Positions 4,604 to 29,164 of a DNA stretch of 32,000 nt are shown one piece after another. The notes under the pieces were generated by a model, which saw only the letters and a program-made list of their open reading frames with translations, was not told the origin of the DNA and did no database searches. Every line of letters starts with the position of its first letter. The first letter of the stretch is position 1. Source of the stretch: Candidatus Heimdallarchaeota archaeon (GTDB taxonomy: Archaea > Asgardarchaeota > Heimdallarchaeia > JABLTI01); contig JAUWKS010000012.1 of NCBI GenBank assembly GCA_030614005.1, positions 30,001-62,000 of the forward strand, in the 5' to 3' direction. Position numbers and translations under genes: made by a program.

Positions 4604-4714
4604 GGGCCGGTAGATCAGACTGGAAGATCGCCTGATTTGCAATAGATAAAAGGCTGCGGGCCAAATCTAAAAAATTTCAGGAGGCCGTGGATTCAAATTC
4701 CACCCGGTCCACCA
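4604..4714 (+). tRNA. tRNA-Ala(UGC) with a 34-nt intron (4642-4675) and encoded CCA
   Basis: Acceptor stem GGGCCGG/CCGGTCC with G3:U70; D stem GATC/GATC; anticodon stem CCTGA (4631-4635)/TCAGG (4677-4681); anticodon TGC at 4638-4640; T arm GTGGA-TTCAAAT-TCCAC; ACCA end. The intron at 37/38 folds via TAGAT/ATCTA and GGC/GCC. Confidence 0.92.
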
Positions 4715-4715
4715 C
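4684..4715 (+). repeat. tRNA-Ala 3'-end repeat, copy 1 (within the intact tRNA; att-like)
   Basis: GCCGTGGATTCAAATTCCACCCGGTCCACCAC; recurs at 21074, 24649, 27390 and 28419. Confidence 0.95.
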
Positions 4716-4829
4716 CTTCTTTTCTCTTTTCCACCTCGTTCTGTCCTTCTTTTTATTTTTATTGTGTGGTATCTGTTACCATTAAAAATTGGATTAATAG
4801 AACAAAATTATTTTTACTCATTTTAAAAC

Positions 4830-5465
4830 CTAGAGTTCGAAAAATCTCTTTAGCTTAACAGGATCAGCTCTATCTTCATCATCAATCAGTATAAACACAC
4901 CGACATTTCTTTTGATGTATTCCTTGCTCCAGTCCTCTTTTATCTTCCATCCTCCTGTTGCAAACACTCCGTTATCCATATCGTAGAAAGGAACATGGGT
5001 GTGGCTGAGGATAATTTTATCTGTCTGAAGAATCTTTGGAAGAAAGTCTATGCTGTTAGTTATTAACTGTTTCTTCATGTTAGTTGCCGCTTGATTCCAA
5101 GTTTCATTCACTCGTTTCTTAAGACCAATGTTATGTCCATGGCAGATGATAAACCGACCTTCTAGAGTATTTAGTTTCACATAGGGAACTACTTGGATGT
5201 CCGGTCTATCGAATAGCAAGTTTCCTTCGTGTCCCATCCCACCTGTTACAAAGACTAACTTTTCCTTAAATCCCTTCTCAATACTCCAGTCAACAAAAGA
5301 GTCTAATGCCTCCTTTCCTGTTTCATCGAAATTATCTAAGAAATCACCGTTCATAATAATTATATCTACTTTCTTTGACGCGCTTTCTAGCGCTTCTTTG
5401 AATTCATCCTCTAAACATCCTTCTGCACCTAGATGTACATCACCAACCACTATTGCAAGAGTCAC
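4830..5465 (-). CDS. Calcineurin-like metallophosphoesterase
   Basis: GDVH, NGDFLD, GGMGHE (in place of GNH[DE]), CHGH and SHTH motifs. The GTG start overlaps the helicase TGA stop (GTGA). Confidence 0.85.
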   Translation of the reverse strand: MTLAIVVGDVHLGAEGCLEDEFKEALESASKKVDIIIMNGDFLDNFDETGKEALDSFVDWSIEKGFKEKLVFVTGGMGHEGNLLFDRPDIQVVPYVKLNTLEGRFIICHGHNIGLKKRVNETWNQAATNMKKQLITNSIDFLPKILQTDKIILSHTHVPFYDMDNGVFATGGWKIKEDWSKEYIKRNVGVFILIDDEDRADPVKLKRFFEL

Positions 5466-7777
5466 CCCGCTAGATCCTCCTTTGTCTTTTGTACTAAAAA
5501 TGAGTTGACTATTCCAATAGAATCTTCTGATACATTAGCAAATAAAGGTAAGATTGACTCTTGAGTTTGCTTATTTATTAGAGCTTCATTAACTAGTTTC
5601 CTCATTTGTTCTGCTACTTTTTGGAATTCTCTAAAAAGAAATGCCGCATTGCCTAACTCTCCACCTCTATCATAAATAACTATTTTATTCTCGTGTACGT
5701 TCACCACTGTTCTAAAAGAGGGCTCTGAAATATGCAATGCTATTTCTGTACTCTTTAGAATAAGGTCTTTCAATAAACTTAGTGCTTCTCTTTTCTTTTT
5801 ATTGCTTGACTTCTTAGCTGAAAAAGTCACCTCTACTAAGAAACCACTAGTTTTCTCTTGCGAGTGGAAAACCTGCTCGTCTTGATGATTATCATCTATT
5901 TTGTTACCTGTTTTCGTGTACCTCACAACTTCAGCAGTTTCTCTTTGAATGACCATTTTGCCAAATCGAATATTTAGTTCAGCAAATCTAAACACTCGTG
6001 CCTGTTTGTCAATTTGGATAGAAGGAGCCTTTAGTTTGTTTTGTTCAATTGATGATTTATTAATTTGAAGCTTTTCTACAACAATCTTCCTCTCTAGCGA
6101 TTTTTCAACTCGGTAGATATCTCCCTGTCTTCCTAGGTAAAGGAGGTTACCCTCTAAAGCCGTTCGTAATATTCTTTGCTCCTCAATTTCACCAATTATC
6201 CGTTCAAAATTATTATCAAGACTTCTCTCAACTAGTAACCTTCTTTGCCCTGCAGATCGAATTTTGTGGTTTCGTATGAACTGTAATAGCTCTTGTTCAT
6301 CAGCTATAATTAATTCACGTCTATCAGCAGAAACTTTGTGATTTATAGTTCGAAGAATGCCGTCTGCTATTAGCATAACGATTGCTGTCTGAGTTATTTG
6401 CTTGCTTTCCAATGTTTTGCTGAAAGCAAGAATTTCTTCAATTGTTGTTATCCCCATATATATTCTGAATAACACAAAAGCTTTCATTCTTTGTAAGGAC
6501 TGTGAGTTAAACAATATTTGTTCAGCAGTGTTCTCTTCAAGAATGGTCTTTATTATTCGATAATTTTCCAAATAATACTTATCCAATACTCGTTCTGTGT
6601 CTAATATTAGTGTAAAATTCTTTTTCTGAGAAATATCTTGAAATCGCAATCTTCCCATTCTTTGTATTAGCCCATTCTTACCTGTTATCGGCCAGCCTAT
6701 ATTGATAATATGTTGAATTTTTGGTATATCTATTCCTAACTCAAGCAATGATGTAGTGAATAGAAATCGAAGTGATCCATCCATTATTCTCTTTATAATA
6801 TCTGCTTTATCAGATTCTGTTAGTTGACTATTGATACACATAAATGGTGAGTTTTGTTTTACTATCTCTAATGGTAAATCTGTTTTTATCATCAATTGTT
6901 CATTAAATTTCGCCACTAACTGACTGACTTTTTGCACACTATCAATGAATACTAAACATATTCCCCCTATCCTTTGAAGATGTGGGTCGATTCGCTCAAG
7001 TATGAATTGTTCTAGTGAATCCTTAGGAAGGATCATCACTCGAATCACTCCCCTTTTGCCTACAGCTTTTACAATCTTTGCGCTTGGCAAGAAATTATCT
7101 CGAAATGAAGCAACATCCTTTACTGTAGCTGAAGCAAGAATTACTCTTAACTTTGGATTCGTTTGTTTAAAGGCTGCAATAAACTCTCGAACATGAGTTA
7201 AATATCCTCCCGAACCTGCATGTATTTCGTCAAATACCATTATATCAGTTTGTTTAATCCAGTCGAGAAAACCATATTTATCTTCCTTGAAACGTCTGTA
7301 GAACAATTTATCTAAAGTTGCCAAGATGATCTGTGGTTTCTTCTTCTCAATTTGTTCCAAGTCTTGTTTTGATAGGTCGCCATTGTATCTGCTATAGGTG
7401 ATCTTTTTCCCTGTTGCTTCGAGAATATGATTGCAATAGCGAGTTAATCTTTGTTCCTGGTCAGCAGCAAGCTGCTTGGTTGGATAGATAATGATTGCAT
7501 TAGAAATCTTCTCATCTATTAATTCTTTAAGTATTGTAAATAGAAACACTTCTGTTTTTCCAGCACCAGTCCCTACTGTGAGAAAAAGGTCATCACCAGC
7601 AAGAATTTTCTTCATAGCTTCAATCTGGTATTTGTAAAGAGTGTAGGGAAACGCTTGTTTCAATGCTTTACCAAGCTTCACCATACCTACTTCAGGATCA
7701 TCAATATAATGATTAGTTTTCTCACTCTCTTGTGGTTGGATATTAAAGGTTGCTTTAACGATGCAGTGGTTTGGCAA
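5462..7777 (-). CDS. SF2 DEAD/DEAH-box helicase, Lhr/Hrq1(SftH)-like
   Basis: Q motif LYKYQ, Walker A GTGAGKT, YPTKQLAADQ, DEIH, SAT, TSLLELGIDI and QRMGR. No C-terminal Cys cluster of the DUF1998 type is seen. Confidence 0.9.
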   Translation of the reverse strand: MPNHCIVKATFNIQPQESEKTNHYIDDPEVGMVKLGKALKQAFPYTLYKYQIEAMKKILAGDDLFLTVGTGAGKTEVFLFTILKELIDEKISNAIIIYPTKQLAADQEQRLTRYCNHILEATGKKITYSRYNGDLSKQDLEQIEKKKPQIILATLDKLFYRRFKEDKYGFLDWIKQTDIMVFDEIHAGSGGYLTHVREFIAAFKQTNPKLRVILASATVKDVASFRDNFLPSAKIVKAVGKRGVIRVMILPKDSLEQFILERIDPHLQRIGGICLVFIDSVQKVSQLVAKFNEQLMIKTDLPLEIVKQNSPFMCINSQLTESDKADIIKRIMDGSLRFLFTTSLLELGIDIPKIQHIINIGWPITGKNGLIQRMGRLRFQDISQKKNFTLILDTERVLDKYYLENYRIIKTILEENTAEQILFNSQSLQRMKAFVLFRIYMGITTIEEILAFSKTLESKQITQTAIVMLIADGILRTINHKVSADRRELIIADEQELLQFIRNHKIRSAGQRRLLVERSLDNNFERIIGEIEEQRILRTALEGNLLYLGRQGDIYRVEKSLERKIVVEKLQINKSSIEQNKLKAPSIQIDKQARVFRFAELNIRFGKMVIQRETAEVVRYTKTGNKIDDNHQDEQVFHSQEKTSGFLVEVTFSAKKSSNKKKREALSLLKDLILKSTEIALHISEPSFRTVVNVHENKIVIYDRGGELGNAAFLFREFQKVAEQMRKLVNEALINKQTQESILPLFANVSEDSIGIVNSFLVQKTKEDLAG

Positions 7778-7779
7778 GT

Positions 7780-8298
7780 CTAATTCTCTCCTTGGATTTT
7801 AGCAGCGTATAAAATTGAAAATATTGAACTAAATTCATCCTTTAAAAAATCATTTATTTCTTCATCGGTTGTATATTCTTCTCCTTTCGAATAAAATTGG
7901 ATTATTCCAGAAATGCATTTTGTTATCGCTTCTTTTCTTCCCTCTCGAGATAAGAATCTGATATTTGATGAAAAATTTTGAATTATTATTTCTTCTTCAC
8001 GTTCTTTTAGAGCGATTTCTTTATTCAATTTTGTTCTATTATATAATTCAGCATGTGCTTGTGGACTAATTTGTAAATGTGGAGGTAATGCTTGCCCTAA
8101 TGCGAGACTGTTATAGAGTTGAACCAAATTATCTAATTGGGAACCTTCTTTCAATCCAAAACGATATTTGTACTTTTGTCCAATACGCCATATTAGACCT
8201 TTTTTCTTCAACTCCTGAAGAGTTAGATACGTTTCTGTAAGAGCTATACCTGCTCCATCAGCTATTACTTTGGCTTTTTTTTGGATAGGCAATTCCAT
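7780..8298 (-). CDS. Hypothetical protein with a probable N-terminal winged HTH
   Basis: AKVIADGAGIALTETYLTLQELKKKGLIWRIG follows the TrmB/wHTH pattern. Confidence 0.5.
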   Translation of the reverse strand: MELPIQKKAKVIADGAGIALTETYLTLQELKKKGLIWRIGQKYKYRFGLKEGSQLDNLVQLYNSLALGQALPPHLQISPQAHAELYNRTKLNKEIALKEREEEIIIQNFSSNIRFLSREGRKEAITKCISGIIQFYSKGEEYTTDEEINDFLKDEFSSIFSILYAAKIQGEN

Positions 8299-8334
8299 AT
8301 TTTATGAAATCACCTAACAAATACCATATCACTT

Positions 8335-9831
8335 TTATCGTATCCATTCTATTTCAAGCTCCTCAAATCGATTGCAATATTCAATTACTCTAGGAGAAAA
8401 TTTATTCGGTTGCAGGTTATTTTCTTCCAGAAAATCCTTCTCTCGGTCTTCAAAAAGGAGAGACGAAGATTTAGAACAAGTAAGGTTTTGTTCTACTTTC
8501 TTAGCAATTCGCTTATTTGGGTAATACACTAACGGTTTAAAATTCGCTTTTTTGATCTCCTCTTGACAGATCCTAAAGGCTATGTCCTTCATTTGTTCCC
8601 TTTCTTCTATGTCTAATGAAATCCATTGAGCAGATAATCGCCAGAATTTCACAGGTATCTCTCTTTCACAATCTATTATCTTTACCATTAATTGCTTTTC
8701 AAGAAATTTCTGATGAATAGCTGAGAGTAAATTATCAAATTCAACAATAAATTGCTTACAAGCTTCTCTGAAGGTTCGATAGGTTTTTCCATTGAAGTAA
8801 CATGGTTCACTAAATAATTGTTGTTTGAGCTTGTAAAGCATCTCTTCTCCTCTTTTGTTAACAACATAGACAATCTCCCCTTTAAATACATCAAGTTTAT
8901 CAACTAATGAATTAGTTATTCTTTTGTCAAGAATAGCATGTACTAGCTTTATGTGTCCTGCGAACTTTAACGCTTCACACAAATCAAGCACCAGTCCCAT
9001 CCATGATAGATCAGAGTAATAACTGAAATGACTAAATCCCCCAACACCTAGATACTTTAAATCTAATTCATCAAGTATATTCCACAATTCCTCCTCACAG
9101 AGAATGAACATATAATTAAACAGAACATCTCCTTTTGTACATGCCATTGTTTTGTAATTGCCTGTTGTTCTTTTATGTAGATATAATCGATTGGACACTC
9201 GATTGCTGATAGCAAAATCAAAAGTGCTTATTAGTTCATTAGTTACCATCCAAGTAATATCTGCTGCTGATGCTTCTGAAAGATTACAGAGAACACTTGT
9301 ATTACAATTATATCCATAAAGATAGGCATCACATATTGCATCAACAAAAAGCTGCCACTTTTGTTTTTCTGAAGAGAACCCTCGCAATGTTTGAACCAAG
9401 GCTAATCGATTAGATAGATTCGACCGCCAAAAGACATTGTTTAATCCAAAAGAAAATCGCATTACATCTACCGTAAGAGCTCTTTGACAGTCCATTCGCT
9501 CAACTTTAAACCATCCTTGAGGAGAAGAAATGCGAACATAATGGCACCCTGCAGAAACTAATTGTTGTTTTATCTCCTCAGAAATTCCCTGATAGTCATA
9601 TACGAATTGTATTACTGACAAATTATATTGAAGCTTGTCTACATGAAGATTATAATCTTTAATAATCACTTGTTGTCCAGGCAGTATTTGAAAACCTAAG
9701 CTCACTTTATTCTTTTTCCGGGCTTCATCAAGCGTTAATCCAGTAAGTTTATACACTTCTTCATTGAAGATATGTTGATTATCCTTAACACATAATATAT
9801 ACTGTTGATCATCCTTTCTACTTTTACTCAA
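8335..9831 (-). CDS. Highly diverged Cas1-like endonuclease/integrase with a C-terminal extension
   Basis: Cas1 motifs in the expected order: N-terminal beta domain (LSVIQFVY..ISEEIKQQLVSAGCHYVRISSPQGW), SEASAADITW, DVLFNYMFIL...GFSH...GLVLDLCE, and VNKRGEEMLY...GKTYRTFR. Recognised by eye only. Confidence 0.68.
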   Translation of the reverse strand: MSKSRKDDQQYILCVKDNQHIFNEEVYKLTGLTLDEARKKNKVSLGFQILPGQQVIIKDYNLHVDKLQYNLSVIQFVYDYQGISEEIKQQLVSAGCHYVRISSPQGWFKVERMDCQRALTVDVMRFSFGLNNVFWRSNLSNRLALVQTLRGFSSEKQKWQLFVDAICDAYLYGYNCNTSVLCNLSEASAADITWMVTNELISTFDFAISNRVSNRLYLHKRTTGNYKTMACTKGDVLFNYMFILCEEELWNILDELDLKYLGVGGFSHFSYYSDLSWMGLVLDLCEALKFAGHIKLVHAILDKRITNSLVDKLDVFKGEIVYVVNKRGEEMLYKLKQQLFSEPCYFNGKTYRTFREACKQFIVEFDNLLSAIHQKFLEKQLMVKIIDCEREIPVKFWRLSAQWISLDIEEREQMKDIAFRICQEEIKKANFKPLVYYPNKRIAKKVEQNLTCSKSSSLLFEDREKDFLEENNLQPNKFSPRVIEYCNRFEELEIEWIR

Positions 9832-9832
9832 T

Positions 9833-11875
9833 TCAATTCCTCCTCATTTTCTTTCTCTTTTGAATCAATTTGAATGTAGTATTACACATTGAACAGCTAA
9901 CAGGTTTCAATCCCTGAGCTGGTCTATCATCTGTGCCAAAATCTTCAATTACAATTTCTCTCCCCTCCACTAAACAAGTAGAACATAAATAAGCATATAT
10001 CTCTTTTTTATCTGCTGAATATCCCACAAAACTTCTGGTAATTGCATCATAGAATTCTTCAACAGTATAAATTATAGTTACCTTTTCTTTTCTTATAAAA
10101 TGCTTGCAACCAACAGTTGTACTTCTGAGTGTTTTGGTAGCTCGAATATGGTTCTCACTTGAAACTTTTCGTTCAGCTATATTTATTGCTCTTCGCCAGA
10201 ACATACAACGTCTTTTTTCAAACCAATGACAATCCCCACAAACGACTTTGAAATGTGCCGGGAAATCTTTACTTGTATAATAATCAAGACTTCTCCCCAA
10301 GGGTGGTTTGGCTGTTAGCGTCTTCACAGGATACCCACTTTTAGATAGACTTTGGATTGCTTGCTTTGCTTCAAAAGGATTAATGGTAAGCATTGAGCAA
10401 ATTTTGTTTTGAGTAATAGGAGACTCAGTATTTGCCAGCAGTTCTTTTAGTGCTCGTTCAATTGTTTGTCTATCCATTTTCTTATTTATTGGTGATTCCT
10501 CAACATCATAGGATTTTTGCAAAACTCTATTCAAGAGCTTTAGACTTTCTCTTGAATCTTGAGTCATCTGATCTCTAAAGCAATTTAACATCTGGGTAAT
10601 TTGGAAAAGTACATAACTATTATTAGAAGCTGCTAGAATACTAGCAATGGTTTCCTCTTCATCTTTGAGAATATCTAACCTACCGATTAAAAATTGCAAA
10701 TCATCAAATTGTAATTTCCCTCGTGTAAAATCGCTAAATATTTCCTGTACTAGTTCCCATGTAATGATGTCATTCTCAGTTTTTTTTCGGATAGTTCTCA
10801 AAAACATCATAGGATCGTTTAGCATCTCTTCAAAGTAGGTTGAAGCAATAATGTATTGTCTTCCAAATGTAGTCAAAGTGAAACGACTATAACTACTTTG
10901 ATCTTTCTTTACTAAAGCAAATGCTCCTAGATGTCTTTCTTGCAAACTCTCAAATAGGGATATATTTTGGAAGTATTTCGTATGGAAAATTAATTCAGTA
11001 AGGTGCTGTCTCATTTCATCATCTGTTTTCTTTTTCTTTGCTTGATATATTCGAAAGTACGTTGCTTTCTGTAATCGTTCAATGAGTTGTTTTTTCGAAG
11101 GGGATCCTGAATATAAACAAAACAGAATAATACTCAAGAAAGCATCTTGTAATGCGTCCTCGTTTAATTCTTGATATATAGCTCTCACAGCCTCATTTGT
11201 TGAGATCATTATGTTATTAAATCCTCTTTCAATTTCTTCGGCAGGAATCAATCCGGTAGAAATAAAATGCTTTCGTACATGTGTTCTCTCTCGTTGAGGT
11301 AGAAGCAAAAGGATTGGGTCAATGTTATCAGAAATCCAAGACTTGCGAGCTCTATTAAGCGACTTATTCTCATCAAATGGATCAATGAAAATATACGCAT
11401 TGACGATTGGCAGCTGGACTTTTGCTTTCAAAGCATCGTCTCGACTCTTTCGATATAACAGATTTCGAGTCAACGTGTTATAACTTGTTATGATTAGCTT
11501 ATTCGCTGCTAGAGGGTGACTGTTTCCTTTAAATTTTGAAAACGTAGAAGCAATCTTCATCCCTGCAAGAGTTTTTTTGGAGGTCTCTGCAGTAACTTGA
11601 TCCTCATCGTAATTAGCATAATTATAGATTTTCTTGGCTTGTTCAGAGGTTCGAACAATAATCATTGCTGTTTGGTCGGATAATCTAGCTGAAAGTAAAG
11701 CTATAGTGGTAGCTAATTGTAACTGGTCTTCAGGGAGAATTTCATAAAAAAATATGTCTGTTTCACATAGAACCGTTTTTCGAATAATGCTTAAGTTATC
11801 AACACAAGTAAATGGATAATCTCGAAAGATAGTGGTTATGCTAATGGGTAATTGTGTTCTATAAGTTGTTATCAT
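9833..11875 (-). CDS. Hypothetical protein: degenerate Ski2/Hel308-like helicase segment, winged helices and Cys-rich C-terminus
   Basis: MIIVRTSEQAKKIY, LIITSYNTL and YIFIDPFD resemble decayed motifs Ia, Ib and II. ATYFRIY...FTLTTFGRQYIIASTY resembles the Hel308 winged helix. The C-terminus has CGDC..C..C plus CSTC/CSMC. No Walker A. Confidence 0.45.
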   Translation of the reverse strand: MITTYRTQLPISITTIFRDYPFTCVDNLSIIRKTVLCETDIFFYEILPEDQLQLATTIALLSARLSDQTAMIIVRTSEQAKKIYNYANYDEDQVTAETSKKTLAGMKIASTFSKFKGNSHPLAANKLIITSYNTLTRNLLYRKSRDDALKAKVQLPIVNAYIFIDPFDENKSLNRARKSWISDNIDPILLLLPQRERTHVRKHFISTGLIPAEEIERGFNNIMISTNEAVRAIYQELNEDALQDAFLSIILFCLYSGSPSKKQLIERLQKATYFRIYQAKKKKTDDEMRQHLTELIFHTKYFQNISLFESLQERHLGAFALVKKDQSSYSRFTLTTFGRQYIIASTYFEEMLNDPMMFLRTIRKKTENDIITWELVQEIFSDFTRGKLQFDDLQFLIGRLDILKDEEETIASILAASNNSYVLFQITQMLNCFRDQMTQDSRESLKLLNRVLQKSYDVEESPINKKMDRQTIERALKELLANTESPITQNKICSMLTINPFEAKQAIQSLSKSGYPVKTLTAKPPLGRSLDYYTSKDFPAHFKVVCGDCHWFEKRRCMFWRRAINIAERKVSSENHIRATKTLRSTTVGCKHFIRKEKVTIIYTVEEFYDAITRSFVGYSADKKEIYAYLCSTCLVEGREIVIEDFGTDDRPAQGLKPVSCSMCNTTFKLIQKRKKMRRN

Positions 11876-11881
11876 CCTACT

Positions 11882-12520
11882 TCACTCCTGGTTTAGCAAT
11901 AGCTCTTCTAGGTGTTCGGGCAGAGAAAGCAACTCCTCGCCAACAAACCGATCGATGTACTCCGCCATTTCTATCTCGAGTGATTCAGGAGAGCTCTCAT
12001 CAATAATCGAAACTGGGAACTTGTCCAGAAATTCCTCACTCAATTCTTTCACTGTTTCTTGTTTGTTTGTCACTCTTTCAATAATAGTTTCTAAGTGCTT
12101 CTTGCTAGTTTTAAGTTGCAGTAAAAATGAATCATCAGGTTCTTCTGCGAGTTGACTTTGGATTTGCATTTTTATATTGAATTCTGGTTGACTGATTATC
12201 AAAATAAATTGGAGAAGGTTATTATTTATCTCAAAAAGCAATGGTTGAGTGTCTGATCGTGGTAGTTTTTCAATTATCAACCATTCAGTTAGTTTCTTGA
12301 CTTTCTGTTTGAATGTCATCAAGCTCATTTTCTCTAGCACTTGATTGTACAATGACAGTACGGATGGGTACGTCACTTGACCGAATTTTATTAAATTATT
12401 TACTAGCAACTCACAGATAACTAGCAAATTAGCAGTGATTTTAATGTCTGGATTATCCAATTCCACTGAATTCGCTGGAACTGATTGTTGAAAAGCACTA
12501 GTGTGAGTCATTTCCGTCAA
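11882..12520 (-). CDS. Hypothetical protein with an acidic C-terminus; first gene of the operon
   Basis: 212-aa ORF (TTG start; ATG at 12511 is an alternative) ending 6 bp before the next gene. No motif recognised. Confidence 0.7.
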   Translation of the reverse strand: MTEMTHTSAFQQSVPANSVELDNPDIKITANLLVICELLVNNLIKFGQVTYPSVLSLYNQVLEKMSLMTFKQKVKKLTEWLIIEKLPRSDTQPLLFEINNNLLQFILIISQPEFNIKMQIQSQLAEEPDDSFLLQLKTSKKHLETIIERVTNKQETVKELSEEFLDKFPVSIIDESSPESLEIEMAEYIDRFVGEELLSLPEHLEELLLNQE

Positions 12521-14556: not shown

Positions 14557-14559
14557 AAA

Positions 14560-15009: not shown

Positions 15010-15021
15010 AGTATGGAATCC

Positions 15022-21073: not shown

Positions 21074-21105
21074 GCCGTGGATTCAAATTCCACCCGGTCC
21101 ACCAC
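21074..21105 (+). repeat. tRNA-Ala 3'-end repeat, copy 2
   Basis: Identical to 4684-4715 over 32 bp. Confidence 0.95.
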
Positions 21106-21219: not shown

Positions 21220-21718
21220 TTAGAGTTCGAAAAATCTCTTTAGCTTAACAGGATCAGCTCTATCTTCATCATCAATTATAATGAATACACCAATATTTCT
21301 CTTTATATAGTCCTCATTCTCCATTAACTCTTCTTTTACCTTCCACCCTCCTGTTGCAAATATACCATTGTCCATATCATAGCTTGGGAAGTGTGTATGG
21401 CTGATAATTAGCTTGTCAGTTTTGCGGATTTTTGGCAAGAAATTACTATCATTTGTTATCAAGTGGTTCTTCAAGTTAACTAAAGCTTGGTTCCATGTTT
21501 CATTTACTTGCTTCTTCAGACCAATATTATGTCCATGACAGATGATAAACCGCCCTTCTAAAGTGTTTAATTTTATATAAGGAACAATTTGGATATCTGG
21601 TCTATCGTACAGTAAATTTCCTTCATGTCCCATCCCTCCTGTTACAAAGACAATTTTTTCCTTAATACCTTTTTCAGCACTCCAAAGCAAAAATGAATCC
21701 AGTGCTTCTTTATCCAGT
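21220..21718 (-). pseudogene. 5'-truncated paralog of the metallophosphoesterase at 4830-5465
   Basis: Shares KEALDSF, FVTGGMGHEGNLL, ICHGHNIGLKK, SHTH and DRADPVKLKRFFEL. An apparent extra base near 21712 breaks T-G-K, similarity stops at about 21718, and the DxH and GD motifs are missing. Confidence 0.85.
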
Positions 21719-21939: not shown

Positions 21940-22854
21940 ATGAAAAAGAAATTAGGAATTTTGATGATAGTTTTTCTATTTGTTGGTATATTGAGCACAT
22001 ATATTGATGTGCGTGGAGCAACAAACTTTACTGGAACAGTAGAAAGTGAATATAGTAATCCATTGAGTAATACAACAATTACACTAGCTGATTGTTATTT
22101 TAATATCCTTGGTTCAACTACAACAAACAGTCAAGGTGAATATAGCCTTTCTGTGACATTAAACGGTAACTCACCATATTATTTATCTGCTGCAAAGAAT
22201 TACCGTTGGGACACTGATACAAAAACAGTCTATTCTGGAGGGACAAATGATTTCGAACTTGATGCGATTACTGAGAAGATTGCTGTCTTTTTCTATGCAT
22301 ATGACGCATGCAATGATGATACAATAGATACATACGAAGAGATTCTAGATGATGAGGGGTATACAAAATATTTCAGATTTGCTAATAGTGATGATGTTAG
22401 CGATGATTGTGATACAGTTGATGACTATGAACGTCCTGCTGATACTCTTTTCTGTTATATTATTGGTCACGGAGAATACGATAATTCTGAAGAAAAGTCT
22501 TACACCTATTTCAAATCAAATGAAAATACACAAGTTTACTCAGACACATTTGAATCCTATATGGATAATTGGGATTCGGCTCGAAAAGGTCTGCTTGTTG
22601 ATTCCTGTTATTCAGGTACTTGGGCAACAGATTTTACTACAAGTCCCTATTTAGCAATGTCCTCTGCAGATACTGCTAATGAAGCAGACTTCCGTTCAGG
22701 ATATTCAAATCAAGAAGGAGAATTCTCATACTACTTCTTTGAAGCTGTTGATGCAGGAGATACAGCAGTAGAAGCATGGGAAGCTGCAGAAGATGAGTGC
22801 TCTGATCAGAATCCAGAAAAAAGCGACTATTCAAGTTACACTTGGTTCAATTGA
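21940..22854 (+). CDS. Secreted clan-CD (caspase/legumain-like) cysteine peptidase with an N-terminal carboxypeptidase-regulatory-like beta domain
   Basis: Signal peptide; GTVESEYSNPLSNTTITL...TTTNSQGEYSL; catalytic dyad candidates IIGHG and LVDSCYSG; EGEFSYYF. Confidence 0.7.
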   Translation: MKKKLGILMIVFLFVGILSTYIDVRGATNFTGTVESEYSNPLSNTTITLADCYFNILGSTTTNSQGEYSLSVTLNGNSPYYLSAAKNYRWDTDTKTVYSGGTNDFELDAITEKIAVFFYAYDACNDDTIDTYEEILDDEGYTKYFRFANSDDVSDDCDTVDDYERPADTLFCYIIGHGEYDNSEEKSYTYFKSNENTQVYSDTFESYMDNWDSARKGLLVDSCYSGTWATDFTTSPYLAMSSADTANEADFRSGYSNQEGEFSYYFFEAVDAGDTAVEAWEAAEDECSDQNPEKSDYSSYTWFN

Positions 22855-22861
22855 CAGAAAT

Positions 22862-22892
22862 AAAGGAATCTTTTGGGATTCCTTTTCTTTTA
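22862..22892 (+). terminator. Hairpin plus T-tract after the peptidase gene
   Basis: AAAGGAATC-ttttgg-GATTCCTTT followed by TCTTTT. Confidence 0.5.
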
Positions 22893-23059
22893 TTAAAAGA
22901 GAAAAAAAATAAGTGGCAAATCAAAAAACATCAATTAAAAAAGGTCTAGCACTAAAAAAAATAATAGATAGCAACAATATTCATTAGTGAATATAACGAA
23001 AATTTTGTGAAAATAACCTTTTTTAGTAAAGCACTTAATTAACATTTGGGGATTAAAAG

Positions 23060-24622
23060 TTGAGAAAAAAAAGTCATTTAATTCTGGTCTGTTGCATAGG
23101 TTTTGTACTAGTTTTTGGGAATCTAATACCTATACTACAGCAAAACAGTATTACTAACCAAAACGAAAAAAATATTCCATATGTAAATGCTAACTTGTCT
23201 GCAAATCTTACGATTGATTTCAGTACTTTTCTGGGGGGGAAGGATAAAGATCTTGGTTATAGTGCTGCAATAACCGACAAAAGAGAGTGTTATGTCACAG
23301 GGCTGACAGAATCCAATGATTTTCCCACAAAAAATGCTTTTGATGAAACTCTCGGTGGTAATCTCGATGCATTTATCACTAAATTTGCTTTTGATGGTTC
23401 CCTGCTCTTTAGTTCTTATCTTGGAGGGAGTAGTCGGGATCGAGCTTTTGCTATTGATGTGGGGGATGATGGAAGCTGTTATGTTTTGGGAAATACTAAT
23501 TCAAGTAATTTTCCAATCAGAAATGCATTTAACAGTACTTTTAGTGGTTATGAAGATGTTTTTGTTTCAAAGTTCTCATCGGATGGTGTTATGCTTTGGA
23601 GCACCTATTTTGGTGGCAATGGTTTTGATAGAGCAGAAGGAATCTCTGTTGCCAAAGATGGGAGTTGCTATATCACAGGGAGAACCGCATCTACTAATTT
23701 TCCGACAAAAGAAGCCTATAGTGATACGTGTAATGGTGGGTATGACGTTTTTGTTTCCAAGTTTGATATAGAAGGGGGGTTACTTTGGAGCACATATTTA
23801 GGAGGGAGTTATTCTGAGCGTGTAGGAGATATTGTTGTGTCAAACGATGGCAGTTGTTATGTGACTGGTGAAACTGACTCAGTTGATTTTCCAGTGAAGG
23901 ATGCATTTGATGACTCATATAATGGTGATTCGGATACTTATATAACTAAATTTTCCACTGAGGGTTCACTTTTGTGGAGTACCTTTCTTGGTGGGGCGTG
24001 GTGGGATGTAGGCCATGGTATTACTGCTGCAAGTGATGGAAGTTGTTATGTGACAGGTTATACGGTTTCTAGTGAATTTCCAGTACAAAATGCCTTTAAT
24101 GAGACGTACGATGATTGGGGAGATGCGTTTGTTGCCAAATTTTCTGCAAGTGGAGGTTTGCTATGGAGCACATTTCTTGGTGGAAATGGTCCTGACAGAG
24201 GTTACGCAATTACCACATCAAAAGATGATAGTTGCTATATTACAGGTTATACCGCATCAACGAACTTTCCGACTAAAAACGCTTATGATTATACTAAAAA
24301 CGATGGCTATGATGTCTTTGCATCAAAATTCTCATCAGATGGTGTTTTGCTTTGGAGCACTTATCTTGGAGGAAGCAATACAGATGAAGGTCGGGATATT
24401 GCTGTAACAAATAACGGTTATTGCTATATTGTGGGTAATACGCATTCAGCTGATTTTCCAGTGATAAATGCGATTGATCGTGAAAGTACCAAGAGTGAAT
24501 GTTTTGTGACGAAATTTATTGAGCCACTCGAACGTGGACAACCAACATTTTTGTATGGGTTCCTAGGTATAATGACTGTTGTACTGCTTGCAGTTATTGT
24601 TCTTTACATAAAACGCAAATGA
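23060..24622 (+). CDS. SBBP-repeat (beta-propeller) surface protein with N-terminal signal and C-terminal TM anchor
   Basis: About seven repeats of WST[YF]LGGxxxDxGxxIxxxxDGSCYVTGxTxSxxFP; C-terminal hydrophobic helix followed by KRK. Confidence 0.88.
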   Translation: MRKKSHLILVCCIGFVLVFGNLIPILQQNSITNQNEKNIPYVNANLSANLTIDFSTFLGGKDKDLGYSAAITDKRECYVTGLTESNDFPTKNAFDETLGGNLDAFITKFAFDGSLLFSSYLGGSSRDRAFAIDVGDDGSCYVLGNTNSSNFPIRNAFNSTFSGYEDVFVSKFSSDGVMLWSTYFGGNGFDRAEGISVAKDGSCYITGRTASTNFPTKEAYSDTCNGGYDVFVSKFDIEGGLLWSTYLGGSYSERVGDIVVSNDGSCYVTGETDSVDFPVKDAFDDSYNGDSDTYITKFSTEGSLLWSTFLGGAWWDVGHGITAASDGSCYVTGYTVSSEFPVQNAFNETYDDWGDAFVAKFSASGGLLWSTFLGGNGPDRGYAITTSKDDSCYITGYTASTNFPTKNAYDYTKNDGYDVFASKFSSDGVLLWSTYLGGSNTDEGRDIAVTNNGYCYIVGNTHSADFPVINAIDRESTKSECFVTKFIEPLERGQPTFLYGFLGIMTVVLLAVIVLYIKRK

Positions 24623-24645
24623 TTTCAGTTTTCCATTTCAAAAAA

Positions 24646-24680
24646 GAGGCCGTGGATTCAAATTCCACCCGGTCCACCAC
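24646..24680 (+). repeat. tRNA-Ala 3'-end repeat, copy 3
   Basis: GAGGCCGTGGATTCAAATTCCACCCGGTCCACCAC, identical to 4681-4715 (35 bp). Confidence 0.95.
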
Positions 24681-24768: not shown

Positions 24769-27372
24769 ATGAGAGAGGTTAGTTTAAAGCGTTTTAAGGA
24801 ACTTTTATTGGAAATAAAAAAATTCAAAATTTTTCGTTTTATCGGTTATTTAACCATCCCTTTTTTCTTTGGCTTTTATATTTTAAACAAGACTAAAACT
24901 AAATTATCTTTTCTATATAGTGAAAAGAAAAGAATCTTACAAGATCTTGTTATTGATATTGAATATAATTTCGCATCTCTTCAGAAGAGAAATCAAGAAA
25001 TCGAAATTAATGATACTTACCTTATTTATTCAGAGAAAGAAGAATGCCTTTCCAAAATTCGAAACTTTATCAGAAAATTGGGATCTATTCAAAGATATTT
25101 TGATATTTTGCCAAACGAAATTATCACTTTTTGTGAGCAATTAGAAGATGAAGCTTTTATAATATTAGAGAAGACCGAACAATATAATGAACAATTTATT
25201 CAAAGAAAAAAAATTGAATATGAGAATCTCTTTAAGAGAGAAAATTTAATCTTAGATGATGAACAACAAAGAGCAATTATAATTGACGATAAACATAATT
25301 TAGTTGTCGCTGGAGCAGGATCAGGTAAAACAGAAGTCCTGACCACAAGAATTGGATATCTTATTAAAAGGAAAACTGATAGAATTAAACCAGAACGAAT
25401 TTTAGCTTTGGCTTTTCAAAAAAAAGCAGAAGAGGTAATAAAGAAACGATTGAAAAAAAGATATAATATTGATGATGTTGAAATCAGAACTTTTCATTCA
25501 TTTGGAAAAAGAATAATTGAAGATTATGCTAAAAAAAGAAAAATTGATGAATATGCTAATAAAAAATTCATTAATCCTAAGAAACTAAATCCTAATTGTG
25601 AAGATGAATCCAAATATCGGAATTTTATTAGAAAAATTTTTGAAAAAATAAGAGATAATGATGTAAAGTACCAAAATCAAATTCTCTTATTTATGAAACA
25701 TTTTTCTGATGAAAAAATCATAAAAGTAGAAACTGATTTTGAAGAAAAAGAAGAATTTTATGAATACCAAAGAAACATGACTTATACAACTTTAAATGGT
25801 ACTAAAGTGAGAAGTGAATCTGAACGATCAATAGCTAATTTCTTCATAAAGCACGAAATTAATGGTAACAAAATCAATATTTTATATGAAGAACCAGCGA
25901 AATGGATGGCATATATGGATGAAGAGGGAAAAGAACACACACCAAATCCAGATTTCTATTTCCCTTATTTTGATATTTATTTGGAACATTGGGCAATTGA
26001 CAAGGATGGAAATGTACCTAAGTGGTTTTCTGGAGAAAATCCAACGGAAAATTACAGGAAAGGTATGGACATAAAAAGAAGTAAATTTAAGGAAAATAAT
26101 AAATTTCTAATCGAAACAACAGAAGCAGAATTTAAGAGTATACCAATTAACGAATTATTGAAAGAGAAATTTCTTACAGCACTAAAAAAGAAAAACCCTC
26201 AGAAAGAGTTTAAGCTATCGGCAATACCATATAAAGGACTGGTAGAAAAAGTCTGGGATGAATGTAGAGCATTTGTTAATAGTTTACCATTGAATATTTC
26301 TAGATATATTACAATAGCAAAAACCTATGGATTAACTATTTCAGATATTGAGAAACGATTACAGAAGAAGAAGAATTGGTCACTAAAACAAATTGCTTTT
26401 GGCAAAATAGCTTTGAGAATATATCAGGAATACGAAAATAAATTAGATAAAAGTTATTCCATTGATTTCGGTGATATGATAAATAATGCTACAAAGTATC
26501 TAAATGAAAACAAAGATTTCTTTTTAGACAAATATGATCACATCCTCATTGACGAATATCAAGATATTAGTGCTCAGAGATTTCTTTTAATTGAAGCATT
26601 AATGAAAAAAAATCCAAAATGTAAACTATTCTGTGTAGGTGATGATTGGCAGAGTATTATGGGATTTGCTGGGTCCAATCTTAACTATTTTATTCACTTT
26701 TATAGATATTTCGATCATCCTGTCAGGACAGATTTGATAAAAAACTATCGTAGCATAAAATCAATCGTAGATGTTGGAGCTACTGTAATTGAAAATAACA
26801 CCAATCAAATTAAAAAACAGACAATTGCTAATAAAGAGATGGAATTGCCTATTTTGGTTTTTTCCTCAAGACATAACAAAGATTATCCAGATAAATACTA
26901 TAAACAAATCACGTCTCATGCTTTGGAGAAAATAAATGAATTGGTTAAAAAAGAGGGTTACAAATATGATGATTTTATGATTCTTTTAAGGATTGCAAAG
27001 AATCCTAAATTAAGAAAGTATCTTAATTCGGATAATGCTTATGGAATCCCTATTTCTGCAGAACCTGCTAAATCAAATTGTGTTCACATATTATCTGTTC
27101 ATAAAAGCAAAGGACTAGAATCGAGAGTTGTAATTCTGTTAAATGTAGATAAGGGATTATATGGATTTCCTTGTGAACTTGAGAACCCAAAAATCTTTGA
27201 AACGGCAATAAAAGAAAATGATGGATTAAGAGAACAAGAGGAAAGAAGATTATTTTATGTAGCATTAACTCGAGCAAAAGAGCAAATAATTATCTATACA
27301 CAAAAACAATCAGAAAGTAGTTTCATTGCAGAAATAGAAGAATTTATTCAAAAAAAGGAGTTATATTATTGA
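24769..27372 (+). CDS. UvrD/helicase IV-like SF1 helicase (sole gene of module 3)
   Basis: AGAGSGKT, TFHSFG, IDFGDMI, IDEYQD, VGDDWQSI, NYRS, HKSKGLE and EERRLFYVALTRAK; internal PDFYFPYFDIYLEHW domain. Confidence 0.93.
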   Translation: MREVSLKRFKELLLEIKKFKIFRFIGYLTIPFFFGFYILNKTKTKLSFLYSEKKRILQDLVIDIEYNFASLQKRNQEIEINDTYLIYSEKEECLSKIRNFIRKLGSIQRYFDILPNEIITFCEQLEDEAFIILEKTEQYNEQFIQRKKIEYENLFKRENLILDDEQQRAIIIDDKHNLVVAGAGSGKTEVLTTRIGYLIKRKTDRIKPERILALAFQKKAEEVIKKRLKKRYNIDDVEIRTFHSFGKRIIEDYAKKRKIDEYANKKFINPKKLNPNCEDESKYRNFIRKIFEKIRDNDVKYQNQILLFMKHFSDEKIIKVETDFEEKEEFYEYQRNMTYTTLNGTKVRSESERSIANFFIKHEINGNKINILYEEPAKWMAYMDEEGKEHTPNPDFYFPYFDIYLEHWAIDKDGNVPKWFSGENPTENYRKGMDIKRSKFKENNKFLIETTEAEFKSIPINELLKEKFLTALKKKNPQKEFKLSAIPYKGLVEKVWDECRAFVNSLPLNISRYITIAKTYGLTISDIEKRLQKKKNWSLKQIAFGKIALRIYQEYENKLDKSYSIDFGDMINNATKYLNENKDFFLDKYDHILIDEYQDISAQRFLLIEALMKKNPKCKLFCVGDDWQSIMGFAGSNLNYFIHFYRYFDHPVRTDLIKNYRSIKSIVDVGATVIENNTNQIKKQTIANKEMELPILVFSSRHNKDYPDKYYKQITSHALEKINELVKKEGYKYDDFMILLRIAKNPKLRKYLNSDNAYGIPISAEPAKSNCVHILSVHKSKGLESRVVILLNVDKGLYGFPCELENPKIFETAIKENDGLREQEERRLFYVALTRAKEQIIIYTQKQSESSFIAEIEEFIQKKELYY

Positions 27373-27389
27373 AAATATTCAACAACATA

Positions 27390-27420
27390 CCGTTGATTCA
27401 AATTCCACCCGGTCCACCAC
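27390..27420 (+). repeat. tRNA-Ala 3'-end repeat, copy 4 (one mismatch)
   Basis: CCGTtGATTCAAATTCCACCCGGTCCACCAC; G>T at 27394. Confidence 0.93.
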
Positions 27421-27440: not shown

Positions 27441-27788
27441 TCAGTCTATTATTCTCACTACTTTTTCTGTTACTATTATGAATTTGTTTGGTATTTTCTC
27501 TGCATATTTCTCTATGAGTTGTTGTATTATTCTTATCTTATTCTCCGTTCGTTCATTTTTTAGTCGTAATAGGATTACTCCTTTGTGCTGTTTTTTTTGT
27601 CTTATAACTAATTCTCCAAAATCCTTGTCATTGGTTAGTAGGATGTATTTTTCCTCATATGCTTTTGCGATTATTTTTTCATCACTCATTCCTCTTGCTT
27701 CGTCGTAAATTGAAAAAACTTCATGACCATTTTTTCGCAACCAATCAGCTACTCTTGGTCCTGTGCATTCATCTACTAGAAATCGCAT
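27441..27788 (-). CDS. DUF5615 family PIN-like toxin
   Basis: MRFLVDEC...GMSDEKI...ILLTNDKDFGEL...GVILLR. Confidence 0.9.
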   Translation of the reverse strand: MRFLVDECTGPRVADWLRKNGHEVFSIYDEARGMSDEKIIAKAYEEKYILLTNDKDFGELVIRQKKQHKGVILLRLKNERTENKIRIIQQLIEKYAEKIPNKFIIVTEKVVRIID

Positions 27789-27789
27789 A

Positions 27790-28038
27790 TTATTGTGCCT
27801 CTTCTATAATCGGCATAAAAGTAGTATTTTCTAGTGTTTCTGAAGCATAAAATAGACAAGCTAAAATATCCTCTTTGGTTAGATCTGGATATTCTTCTAT
27901 TATCTCCTTTATTTCTGCTCCATTTGCTAACAGATTCAATATGAATTGCACTGTTAATCTTGTTCCTTTAATAACAGGTTTTCCGGTCATTATTTTCGGA
28001 TTTATTGTTATCCTTTCTAGAATTTCCTTTCGCTCCAA
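27790..28038 (-). CDS. DUF433 family antitoxin
   Basis: RITINPKIMTGKPVIKGTRLTV...EEYPDLTKEDILACL; lies directly upstream of the DUF5615 gene. Confidence 0.92.
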   Translation of the reverse strand: MERKEILERITINPKIMTGKPVIKGTRLTVQFILNLLANGAEIKEIIEEYPDLTKEDILACLFYASETLENTTFMPIIEEAQ

Positions 28039-28414: not shown

Positions 28415-28449
28415 GGAGGCCGTGGATTTAAATTCCACCCGGTCCACCA
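28415..28449 (+). repeat. tRNA-Ala 3'-end repeat, copy 5 (one mismatch)
   Basis: GGAGGCCGTGGATTtAAATTCCACCCGGTCCACCA; C>T at 28429. Confidence 0.93.
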
Positions 28450-28496
28450 ATTTTTCTTCATCAATAGTTTTTTATCTGTGTATTACCAATATATAG

Positions 28497-28724
28497 ATGA
28501 TATATATGGGTTACAAAACTCTTAGTGTTAGTGATGAGATTTACGATCTTCTTTGTGCTATGAAAGAAGATAATGAATCTTTCAATGAACTCTTTACTCG
28601 GCTCATTCGTGGTAGTGGCAAACATATATTAAAGTTTCATGGACAGCTTTCTGATTCAGCTGATTTTGATAAGATTATGGCCCGTATTTCAGATGAGCGA
28701 AAAAATGAGCAGGAACGTCTCTAA
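28497..28724 (+). CDS. vapB: VapB-type archaeal antitoxin
   Basis: KTLSVSDEIYDLL..MKEDNESFNELFTRLI; 2 bp upstream of a PIN gene. The start may be ATG 28506. Confidence 0.82.
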   Translation: MIYMGYKTLSVSDEIYDLLCAMKEDNESFNELFTRLIRGSGKHILKFHGQLSDSADFDKIMARISDERKNEQERL

Positions 28725-28726
28725 TC

Positions 28727-29125
28727 ATGGCTTCTTTTGTTCACTTTGACACTAATCTTGTTGTAGATTTTTTTAAGGGAACTTTTCCTCGAGCTGAATT
28801 TGAACCTTTGCTTTCACAGAATGTTGTCATGATTAGCGTACTTGTTGAATATGAATTGAGACTTGGTCAGAAATTATCTCAAAATCAAGATATTAAACAA
28901 TTACTTGCGGATTTTCTTGAATCCGTGCTCATAATTCCACTCTCATCTGAAATTGTGGCAAAAGCATGTGAGATACAATCACGACAAATTTCCTTAGGCA
29001 AACGATTACCATTAGTTGATCTCTTGATTGGAACAACATCTATCGTTCATAATGCAAAATTGCTTTCAAATGGTAGTGATATGCAAAAACTTATTGCATA
29101 TGGACTTGAAGTAGTTTCTTTTTAA
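28727..29125 (+). CDS. vapC: VapC PIN-domain toxin
   Basis: FDTNLVVDFF, SVLVEYEL, LVDLLIGTTSIVHNAKLLSNGSD. Confidence 0.88.
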   Translation: MASFVHFDTNLVVDFFKGTFPRAEFEPLLSQNVVMISVLVEYELRLGQKLSQNQDIKQLLADFLESVLIIPLSSEIVAKACEIQSRQISLGKRLPLVDLLIGTTSIVHNAKLLSNGSDMQKLIAYGLEVVSF

Positions 29126-29151
29126 TCTAAAAGTTTCGCTCGTTTAATATT

Positions 29152-29164
29152 GTGGATTCAAATT
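29152..29164 (+). repeat. Probable remnant (copy 6) of the tRNA 3'-end repeat at the right boundary of the island
   Basis: GTGGATTCAAATT, a 13-bp exact match to the T arm, located between vapC and the core-like GTPase gene. Confidence 0.6.

Follow-up and report, generated by a model that had tools for sequence, protein, structure and literature searches.

An array of repeated tRNA tails and Cas1-like-encoding elements at a tRNA-Ala gene of a Heimdall-group archaeon

In a Candidatus Heimdallarchaeota archaeon (assembly GCA_030614005.1, contig JAUWKS010000012.1), copies of the 3' end of a tRNA-Ala gene recur downstream of that gene and separate five modules of other genes, the first of which encodes a 498-aa protein resembling Cas1. 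How were these modules brought to the tRNA, and could the Cas1-like protein, together with the genes that accompany it, have been responsible? We address these questions using a window of 32,000 nt (positions 30,001 to 62,000 of the contig, forward strand), to whose numbering all coordinates refer unless another contig is named. The evidence tilts towards an accretion array of self-mobilising elements, moved by a seven-gene core in which the Cas1-like protein would be the joining enzyme.

Repeated tRNA tails and the modules between them

The locus is anchored by a tRNA-Ala(UGC) gene (4604-4714, + strand) with a 34-nt intron (4643-4676), found by running ARAGORN on the genome with introns allowed; default ARAGORN and Rfam called no RNA genes in the window. 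Both the G3:U70 identity pair and an encoded CCA can be read directly from the sequence. The last 25 nt of the gene, GATTCAAATTCCACCCGGTCCACCA, have five occurrences on the + strand, starting at 4690, 21080, 24655, 27395 and 28425, the final one with 1 mismatch, and the chance expectation from 100 shuffles is none. Aligned in register, the repeat copies extend to ~36 nt (tRNA frame ~4680-4715), which is nearly the entire 3' exon, and beyond the tRNA there are four full tail copies (R2-R5) and one 13-nt partial copy (R6), followed by the neighbouring gene:

R1, 4680..4715, +: block within the functional tRNA, consisting of the 3' exon minus 3 nt, plus 1 nt
R2, 21070..21105, +: 35/36 identical to R1
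R3, 24645..24680, +: 35/36 identical to R1
R4, 27385..27420, +: final 26 nt as in the tRNA, with 5 mismatches among the first 10
R5, 28415..28450, +: one T-loop change and one change after CCA
R6, 29152..29164, +: 13-nt remnant, GTGGATTCAAATT, of the last repeat; end of the island
29244..30527, −: Arf/Rag-like GTPase gene (Pfam), the original right-hand neighbour of tRNA-Ala

The five modules between the repeats measure 16,354, 3,539, 2,704, 994 and 701 nt. A first-pass annotation of the window had described an intact tRNA followed by a repeat-module-repeat succession of five modules of 0.7-16 kb, and the repeat search and the measured sizes agree with it. R6 lies 80 nt ahead of the GTPase gene stop, and a complete terminal repeat occupies the same position in another genome, G081. 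Beside the partial R6, a short second copy of the GTPase gene's 3' end (29165-29243; TTTAGAGCAG...) precedes the true stop, which points to a rearrangement by which the last repeat also lost its 3' part.

In four congeners (G080, G086, G088 and G083) the site is empty, tRNA-Ala being followed by ~26 nt and then by the GTPase stop, so the entire stretch from 4716 to ~29164 is inserted DNA; the empty sites that the first-pass annotation proposed to seek in related genomes thus exist. G081, by contrast with these, is occupied. Its order (genes are described below) is tRNA, a complete subfamily-B element, a degenerate repeat, MmeI, p304 and SBBP, R3, UvrD, a subfamily-A proximal-end remnant, a complete last repeat and the GTPase gene. 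Distal modules are common to the window and G081, and the tRNA-proximal slot holds different complete elements in the two, with Cas1-like proteins that are only 43% identical and belong to different subfamilies. With complete elements beside the tRNA in both, growth of the array looks polar, as had been suggested at first pass. Nucleotide identity between the window and G081 varies along the array:

flanks: 82-86%
UvrD: 82.9%
MmeI (segment 17857-20995): 92.7%
p304-SBBP to the right edge of R3 (segment 21760-24682): 91.9%

Because MmeI and p304-SBBP are more alike than the flanks, it appears that both were exchanged after the species split, with one breakpoint at a repeat; defence modules seem, then, to be exchanged between species with breakpoints at repeats. 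Logan contigs from four cold-seep/sediment runs, compared with 4300-24299, contained neither an R1-R2 join nor a circle junction, at a partial coverage in which rare forms would be invisible. A contig that occurs in two runs of a single cold-seep study aligns with the window starting exactly at 4716, the first base past the repeat, and upstream of this point carries 131 nt of unrelated, non-tRNA-like sequence absent from the archaeon's own assembly; it could be another insertion context or an assembly chimera.

The repeated block begins 3 nt downstream of the tRNA-Ala intron. When the window was compared with the tRNA-Ala loci L083, L087, L093, L095, L097 and L101, the intron proved to be present in the three genomes with a repeat array (34 nt in the window, 31 nt in G081, 36 nt in G089) and absent from the four empty-site genomes (G080, G086, G088 and G083). 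This association may be phylogenetic, or may reflect the way in which the elements insert.

A Cas1-fold protein in a conserved gene core

All genes of module 1 are on the minus strand. In order of distance from the tRNA they are as follows:

4830..5465, −: metallophosphoesterase (MPE), 211 aa; Pfam Metallophos, 1.7e-6; last gene of the core
5462..7777, −: superfamily 2 (SF2) DEAD/DEAH helicase, Lhr-core/Cas3-like, 771 aa; Pfam DEAD, 2e-27, and Helicase_C
7780..8298, −: small winged helix-turn-helix (wHTH) protein, 172 aa; weak TrmB-type HTH match; same position in all loci
8335..9831, −: divergent protein of predicted Cas1 fold, 498 aa; predicted structure and motifs E186, H268, D283, E286
9833..11875, −: p680 partner protein, 680 aa; helicase-C-like region, wHTH and C-terminal Cys-rich (Zn-ribbon-like) region
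11882..12520, −: p212, 212 aa, in a conserved position (family alignment)
12910..14556, −: LAGLIDADG-HTH nuclease, 548 aa; Pfam LAGLIDADG_3, 3e-8, and HTH_3
14560..17220, −: 149-aa protein and 732-aa NERD-domain protein; accessory, missing from some elements
17897..20815, −: MmeI-like type IIL restriction-modification enzyme, 972 aa; Pfam MmeI_Mtase, 2e-35, and further MmeI domains

Searches of the fetched loci with tblastn gave a seven-gene core in the order LAGLIDADG-HTH, p212, p680, Cas1-like, wHTH, helicase, MPE. The tRNA-proximal insert, from 4716 to ~17.2 kb, is a complete element, here joined to the MmeI module. In G081 MmeI is a module on its own, with the degenerate repeat ahead of it; in the window, a search between the NERD gene and MmeI for a remnant of an attachment (att) site found none.

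The 498-aa protein has no match in Pfam, NCBIfam, PADLOC, PDB sequences (searched with the single sequence and with a profile) or the ESM atlas, and a six-frame search of the whole of its own genome found no match to the Pfam Cas1 model, PF01867. Only 10 relatives were present among 1.8 billion cluster representatives; several of these carry the Cas1-like part as the C-terminal domain of proteins of 840-1600 aa, two of which also have a PD-(D/E)XK domain. The AlphaFold2 (AF2) model (pLDDT, its per-residue confidence score, 72) folds into strands over 45-100, with helices starting at 115. In Foldseek its top match was the Methanosarcina mazei casposase (6opm), which it matched with probability 1.0, as it did more than 50 Cas1 chains. 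VIA-align superposed it on Archaeoglobus fulgidus Cas1 with Z 20.9 and a root-mean-square deviation (rmsd) of 3.0 Å over 255 residues, and on the casposase with Z 19.9 over residues 48-442; overall, Z values of 18-21 and an rmsd of ~3 Å over ~255 residues correspond to the two-domain Cas1 fold. Residues E186, H268, D283 and E286, which we take to be the counterparts of E141, H208, D218 and D221 of Escherichia coli Cas1, are kept throughout the family alignment, distant homologues included, and in an hhalign comparison with 12 canonical Asgard Cas1 proteins this tetrad was in register with the motifs EG.A, G.LH and LDL.E. By its modelled fold and active-site motifs, therefore, the protein is a Cas1 that no curated sequence model recognises, divergent yet, to judge from the conserved tetrad, catalytically intact. 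Its first-pass designation as Cas1-like is upheld by Foldseek, by VIA-align and by the E/H/D/E motifs.

The other core proteins are known in varying detail. The helicase also matched NCBIfam TIGR04121 (9e-27, below the cut-off of that model) and the PADLOC entries for BrxH/SngC/Cas3. In p680 the family alignment has invariant Cys pairs, and there is a weak Helicase_C lead, with ESM atlas scores of only 0.8; in many relatives p680 and the Cas1-like domain are fused, open frames of 1009-1359 aa spanning both. From its alignment consensus p212 is probably a wHTH joined to a coiled coil. The LAGLIDADG-HTH protein is of the double-motif kind, with a C-terminal XRE-type HTH, and in alignment both motif acidic residues (IGDG, LDADG) are retained. 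Its family has at least 13 paralogues elsewhere in the same genome, with copies on C8, C9 (three), C15, C41, C48, C63, C67, C78, C86 and C122, many of them without a Cas1-like neighbour.

Of 399 genomes of the phylum, 18 contain the Cas1-like family, as do 9 of the 10 genomes of the genus, frequently as multiple copies; the core as a whole is likewise found in 9 of 10 congeners, often more than once in a genome. Three subfamilies of the core can be distinguished, with identities of 40-50% between them and 68-85% among members of the same one. The MPE end of the core lies 20-115 nt from the tRNA 3' end at Ala, Pro and Lys loci; in the window the MPE stop is 115 nt from the end of tRNA-Ala, and orthologues adjoin tRNA-Ala, tRNA-Pro or tRNA-Lys in congeners:

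tRNA-Ala, window and G081:C11: complete core, MPE end proximal
tRNA-Pro, G084:C33: complete core, MPE end proximal
tRNA-Lys, G085:C145: core, MPE end proximal
tRNA-Lys, G081:C19: MPE remnant, then five repeats ~0.9 kb apart

Subfamily-B elements occur at both tRNA-Ala and tRNA-Pro, with repeats of the local kind. The tRNA-Pro element of G084:C33 is closed by a repeat 14.2 kb downstream and has ten genes, none of them for a recombinase; beyond it come a 1-kb nucleotidyltransferase/HEPN cassette and another repeat. In the archaeon's own genome a fused variant (G000:C63, 35437-53810) starts 118 nt after tRNA-Leu(UAG) and has a tail repeat 18.3 kb off, with the gene order LAGLIDADG-HTH (adjacent to the tRNA), giant Cas1-like fusion, helicase, MPE; its core is oriented oppositely, relative to the tRNA, to that of the other elements. 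Thus the association of homologous operons with tRNA genes, on which the first-pass annotation had staked its proposal, holds at Ala, Pro and Lys, and at Leu for the fused type. Scans of IMG/VR with the Cas1-like protein, the LAGLIDADG protein and the LAGLIDADG alignment brought up no relatives, and the 52 matches across metagenomes to a 19-mer of the element's proximal end were all by chance.

Possible routes of insertion

How might such elements have entered the tRNA gene? We envisage that integrative elements of the Heimdall group insert successively at the 3' exon of tRNA-Ala, each new arrival leaving the tRNA intact and pushing the older insert, with its copy of the tail, away from the gene; the distal modules would be deletion remnants in which only cargo (restriction, helicase and toxin-antitoxin genes) has been kept. 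The Cas1-like protein with p680 may form the strand-transfer enzyme, and the LAGLIDADG-HTH nuclease, the Lhr/Cas3-like helicase and the phosphoesterase could recognise or process the DNA ends. Self-mobilisation by the core is favoured by the conservation of the Cas1-like protein, LAGLIDADG nuclease, helicase and phosphoesterase in every element, and the core keeps to the tRNA-proximal end, where other elements hold their integrase.

An ordinary integrase is conspicuously hard to find. No tyrosine (Tyr) or serine (Ser) recombinase domain, transposase, Cas2 or DNA polymerase was detected by Pfam or PADLOC in the open reading frames (ORFs) of the window, apart from one spurious PADLOC match to Cas2 inside the helicase. 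A six-frame search of the archaeon's genome (3.6 Mb, 90% complete) gave one PF00589 match, on another contig, and no resolvase or SSV-type integrase. Domain searches found no Tyr/Ser recombinase in complete repeat-bounded elements at three different tRNAs, as the first-pass annotation had anticipated for elements of this kind, and none of 25 Tyr-recombinase loci of the genus had a tRNA or att-like sequence within 1.5 kb. As to a recombinase hidden among the poorly recognised proteins, p680 gave weak helicase-C/wHTH leads only, and the fold of the 732-aa NERD protein had no recombinase match. An SSV-type integrase split across att was ruled out, since it is with the stop of MPE and the start of MmeI that the neighbouring ORFs face the att sites.

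These results bear most directly on the idea that the array is a tandem island built by a conventional Tyr recombinase, supplied in trans (by an unbinned plasmid, a virus or another element) or since lost, which recombined an element-borne attP (a copy of the tRNA 3' exon) with the tRNA; on this view the Cas1-like operon is defence or repair cargo lying beside attP by chance. Besides the missing recombinases, this would require helpers of matching specificity for the Ala, Pro, Lys and Leu sites, and gives no reason for a cargo operon to keep to the extreme end of the element in one orientation. Even so, it has real attractions. Repeats of 30-40 nt from tRNA 3' ends, ragged at 5' and sharp at 3', are the classical footprint of tRNA integrases (Williams 2002, as cited in PMC8813620). 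The proximal arm alone is conserved, the distal side being variable cargo. Mismatches among the repeats cluster 5' of the T-loop, and the shared changes in the C8 array (both described below) are easier to understand if blocks travel with elements. Metagenome-assembled genomes (MAGs), moreover, usually lose plasmids and viruses, and extrachromosomal DNA is absent from them. Weighing both sides, we consider conventional Tyr recombination doubtful, while giving it serious attention.

Several observations also count against an array mobilised by its own core through Cas1 chemistry. We infer the integrase role of the Cas1-like protein, and its hhalign score to canonical Cas1 is weak when taken alone (E 0.015); given the loss of plasmids and viruses from MAGs, the assemblies may lack a helper integrase. 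Known Cas1 chemistry would give exact target duplications of constant length and well-defined element ends, whereas the repeated block, of ~36 nt at Ala, measures 30 nt at Pro and 40 nt at Lys. Terminal inverted repeats (TIRs) were not found, the best end-to-end inverted match being within the shuffled range in all five modules, and distal element ends share no conserved sequence. The mismatch frequency, 34% over the 12 nt preceding the T-loop, is 6% within the loop and 8% beyond it, and differences in the 5' and 3' strands of the T-stem number 17 to 6; both counts cover 17 distal repeats from six arrays, which are not independent of each other, and the first comparison is biased by the search anchor. 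The operon closest to that of the window (73% identity), on the metagenome locus L008, lacks tRNA-like sequence up to 1.2 kb from its MPE end, and more distant fused variants do not adjoin tRNAs.

The repeats themselves carry information about their origin. In R4 a diverged 5' third (5 mismatches in 10 nt) is joined to 26 perfect nt, and more generally the mismatch rate shifts at the T-loop, the centre of the 17-bp inverted repeat of the T-arm. A second array in the archaeon's genome (G000:C8, ~35.9-40.7 kb) consists of tRNA-Pro(UGG) and five tail repeats, at +0.3, +2.4, +3.0, +3.9 and +4.7 kb; its modules include an AAA-ATPase-like gene and a 211-aa gene. All five of its distal repeats have one T-loop change that is absent from the resident tRNA, and four of the five share a compensated T-stem pair and an acceptor change, likewise absent from the resident tRNA, while differing little from each other. 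It is hard to see these repeats as copies of the resident tRNA, and easy if the elements bring their own block. (A T/C-rich match of 15 nt between the element terminus and the sequence behind a C8 repeat was not significant.) Evidence for repeats derived from the target comes from their agreement with the local tRNA type in each species: repeats of the G089 type flank a DUF433 cassette that is 81% identical to that of the window, the flank proteins of the two being ~55% identical. Reading these sequences together, we lean slightly towards the repeat as an element-borne copy of the tRNA 3' exon rather than a target duplication. That the Cas1-like protein is an integrase which inserts kilobase-sized DNA at the tRNA 3' exon and, in doing so, duplicates a 30-40-bp hairpin-containing target is in our judgement unlikely.

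The first-pass annotation had gone further, with an array in which the tRNA acts as leader and first repeat, a 31-36-bp block is exactly duplicated at each event, and arbitrary gene-sized 'spacers' are captured, as if by CRISPR adaptation on a giant scale. The Cas1 fold with its intact active site invites such a comparison, as does a block in the length range of CRISPR repeats that contains the T-arm palindrome, which is also the recognition element of the Aciduliprofundum boonei casposase (PMC9939771). Polar growth would place complete elements beside the tRNA, where they are; repeats would fit the local tRNA across species, as they do around the DUF433 cassettes of the window and G089 and at the tRNA-Ala and tRNA-Pro sites of subfamily B; and distal ends without conserved sequence would be expected of prespacers. 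The contents of the array, however, are not arbitrary. Module 2 comprises:

21220..21690, −: truncated MPE paralogue, 156 aa, lacking ~59 N-terminal residues; 79% identical to the MPE of 4830-5465
21940..24622, +: cargo consisting of a 304-aa CarboxypepD_reg/C13-like protein (p304) and a 520-aa SBBP beta-propeller protein (Pfam)

Over its first 550 nt it is 75-89% identical to the beginning of module 1, the 246 nt behind R2 being 89% identical to the DNA behind R1, and a metagenome contig from a different study links the p304 gene found here to an att block, a full-length MPE and a 3' portion of the helicase. Module 2 is thus a decayed copy of the same element family, of which the contig is a less-decayed form, and from these signs the cassettes appear to be leftovers of whole elements and not 'spacers'. 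A G081 module likewise opens with remnants of the element's own proximal end. In addition, the block has no fixed length, R4 is composite, the C8 repeats differ from their resident tRNA in a shared and compensated manner, and neither Cas2 nor TIRs were found. A CRISPR-like exact target duplication of fixed length is therefore not supported by the repeats as they now stand, and adaptation on this giant scale seems to us quite improbable. What survives of the Cas1-linked array as first described is the Cas1 itself, the tRNA association, the lack of a Tyr/Ser recombinase in complete elements, the apparent polarity and the empty sites; spacer capture and exact regeneration of a CRISPR-sized repeat do not.

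A further route would begin with the LAGLIDADG-HTH nuclease, cutting the pseudo-palindromic T-arm DNA of both the tRNA gene and the element's copy; helicase and phosphoesterase would process the ends, and joining would follow by annealing, ligation or Cas1-like transesterification, with homology assisting and with the Cas1-like protein as an accessory that does not choose the site. A homing-endonuclease-like gene has been proposed to account for site-specific integration of the Heimdall element HeimM2 (Wu et al., PMC8813620). The nuclease keeps both catalytic acidic residues, is 55-66% identical between subfamilies (versus 43% for the Cas1-like protein), occurs in every element variant, fused ones included, and adjoins tRNA-Leu on C63; and the change in mismatch rate falls at the centre of the T-arm inverted repeat. 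Against this, its specificity would have to differ for the Ala, Pro, Lys and Leu sites despite a highly conserved protein, and the many solitary LAGLIDADG copies are what is seen with selfish homing genes. We know of no homing endonuclease that creates integrations flanked by direct repeats, and regard initiation by this nuclease as very unlikely.

Relation to known elements, and the cargo

The accepted account of how the CRISPR adaptation enzyme arose from a Cas1 transposase is based on casposons, whose duplications span only 14-15 bp and which depend on a polymerase and inverted ends. What is new here is a group of polymerase-less, TIR-less Cas1-encoding elements with 30-40-bp tRNA-tail repeats, accreting at tRNAs. 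If the Cas1-like protein were shown to be the integrase, they would be a new class of Cas1 mobile element, and the step from transposon to repeat array would become directly testable. Should it also duplicate a hairpin target, the arrays would be a living intermediate between the target duplication of casposons and the repeat duplication of CRISPR, with the tRNA as leader, the tRNA tail as repeat, and whole elements in place of spacers. If another core enzyme does the inserting, the elements would represent a new archaeal integration system. Either way, these elements are a principal means for Heimdall-group Asgard archaea to gather defence and toxin-antitoxin genes and to exchange them; the MmeI and beta-propeller modules have 92% identity between species in which that of the flanking genes is 82-86%.

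Casposons can insert at tRNA 3' ends, may form tandem copies and rely on the T-arm for target recognition; their other features are PolB, TIRs and duplications of 14-15 bp (PMC4046053, PMC9939771). The present elements resemble the family-2 casposons of A. boonei and M. mazei in that a Cas1-family protein is the only integrase-like enzyme, with no Tyr/Ser recombinase; the likeness extends to insertion at a tRNA 3' end with the tRNA preserved, head-to-tail tandem copies between direct repeats, a T-arm palindrome within the target, and a casposase (6opm) as the top structural match. They differ from casposons in that no family-B DNA polymerase was found in the ORFs of the island or in the tRNA-Pro element, and no TIRs at the module ends; in a repeat of 30-40 bp that covers the T arm and the 3' strand of the acceptor, where the casposon duplication of 14-15 bp overlaps the tRNA by only 4-7 nt; and in a Cas1-like protein too diverged for Pfam, set in a seven-gene core with helicase, phosphoesterase, LAGLIDADG and wHTH proteins.

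On the grounds that repeats flank their TnpB-bearing loci, the aCas1 proteins have been predicted to be transposases of new mobile elements (Altae-Tran et al. 2023, PMC10691335). Like them, the 498-aa protein is an extremely diverged, Asgard-restricted Cas1 homologue in a repeat-flanked locus, and the fused p680-Cas1 variants accompanied by helicase/phosphoesterase and LAGLIDADG genes in the same genome resemble the aCas1-TnpB type. Unlike the aCas1-TnpB loci (Cas1H-Asgard-1/-2), the ORFs of the window have no TnpB/OrfB domain, and the Cas1-like protein, p680, helicase and phosphoesterase are encoded by separate genes. The aCas1 literature that we compared, a set outside which Makarova et al. 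(2020) falls, makes no mention of tRNA 3'-exon repeats, empty sites, polar accretion or cargo decay. Heimdall elements that insert at tRNAs and lack an identified integrase have already been described (PMC8813620).

With the tRNA islands of Tyr recombinases (Williams 2002; SSV/pNOB8-type) the array shares flanking repeats of tRNA 3' ends, a reconstituted tRNA and an empty site, and with accreted islands of that sort successive insertions, the oldest furthest away, decay that leaves cargo, and a conserved module beside att; it departs from them in having no Tyr/Ser recombinase in complete elements or near the arrays, and no integrase split across att. Integrons and CRISPR arrays also grow in a polar fashion beside a fixed 'platform', with short repeats between units, and the distal units here are likewise single operons, mostly of toxin-antitoxin or defence genes. 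There is, however, no IntI or attC, the repeats being tRNA fragments, and the units, instead of being promoterless cassettes, derive by decay from copies of a large element that looks autonomous. From CRISPR arrays the differences are the absence of Cas2, units of 0.7-16 kb as against spacers of 30-40 bp, and non-uniform repeats with ragged 5' edges.

The cargo of the remaining distal modules is as follows:

24769..27372, +: module 3, UvrD/GajB-like superfamily 1 (SF1) helicase, 867 aa; Pfam UvrD-helicase, 5.5e-45; PADLOC GajB, 8e-55
27441..28038, −: module 4, toxin-antitoxin pair of DUF5615 (PIN-like) and DUF433; Pfam, 1.8e-27 and 6.7e-26
28506..29125, +: module 5, VapB-type antitoxin (72 aa) and PIN/VapC (132 aa); VAPB_antitox, 4.7e-12, and PIN, 1.5e-11

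Among the accessory genes of module 1, the 732-aa protein (15022-17220), whose Pfam NERD match is just under the cut-off, combines a beta-rich N-terminal half with a C-terminal NERD-type nuclease, and shows, from AF2 and Foldseek, a weak fold similarity (TM score only ~0.2) to the cyclic-oligoadenylate-activated Can2/Card1. In module 2, six tandem units of 189 nt (23366-24372; 61-85% identical) within the 520-aa gene correspond to blades of the SBBP beta-propeller. Small distal cassettes in four arrays are toxin-antitoxin pairs. At the G081:C19 locus (L047, 3792-9159), an intron-containing tRNA-Lys(CUU) and a C-terminal remnant of MPE are followed by five tail repeats spaced 0.86-0.98 kb apart, and the units between them hold MazE/PIN, HEPN and PIN genes in a very regular toxin-antitoxin cassette array.

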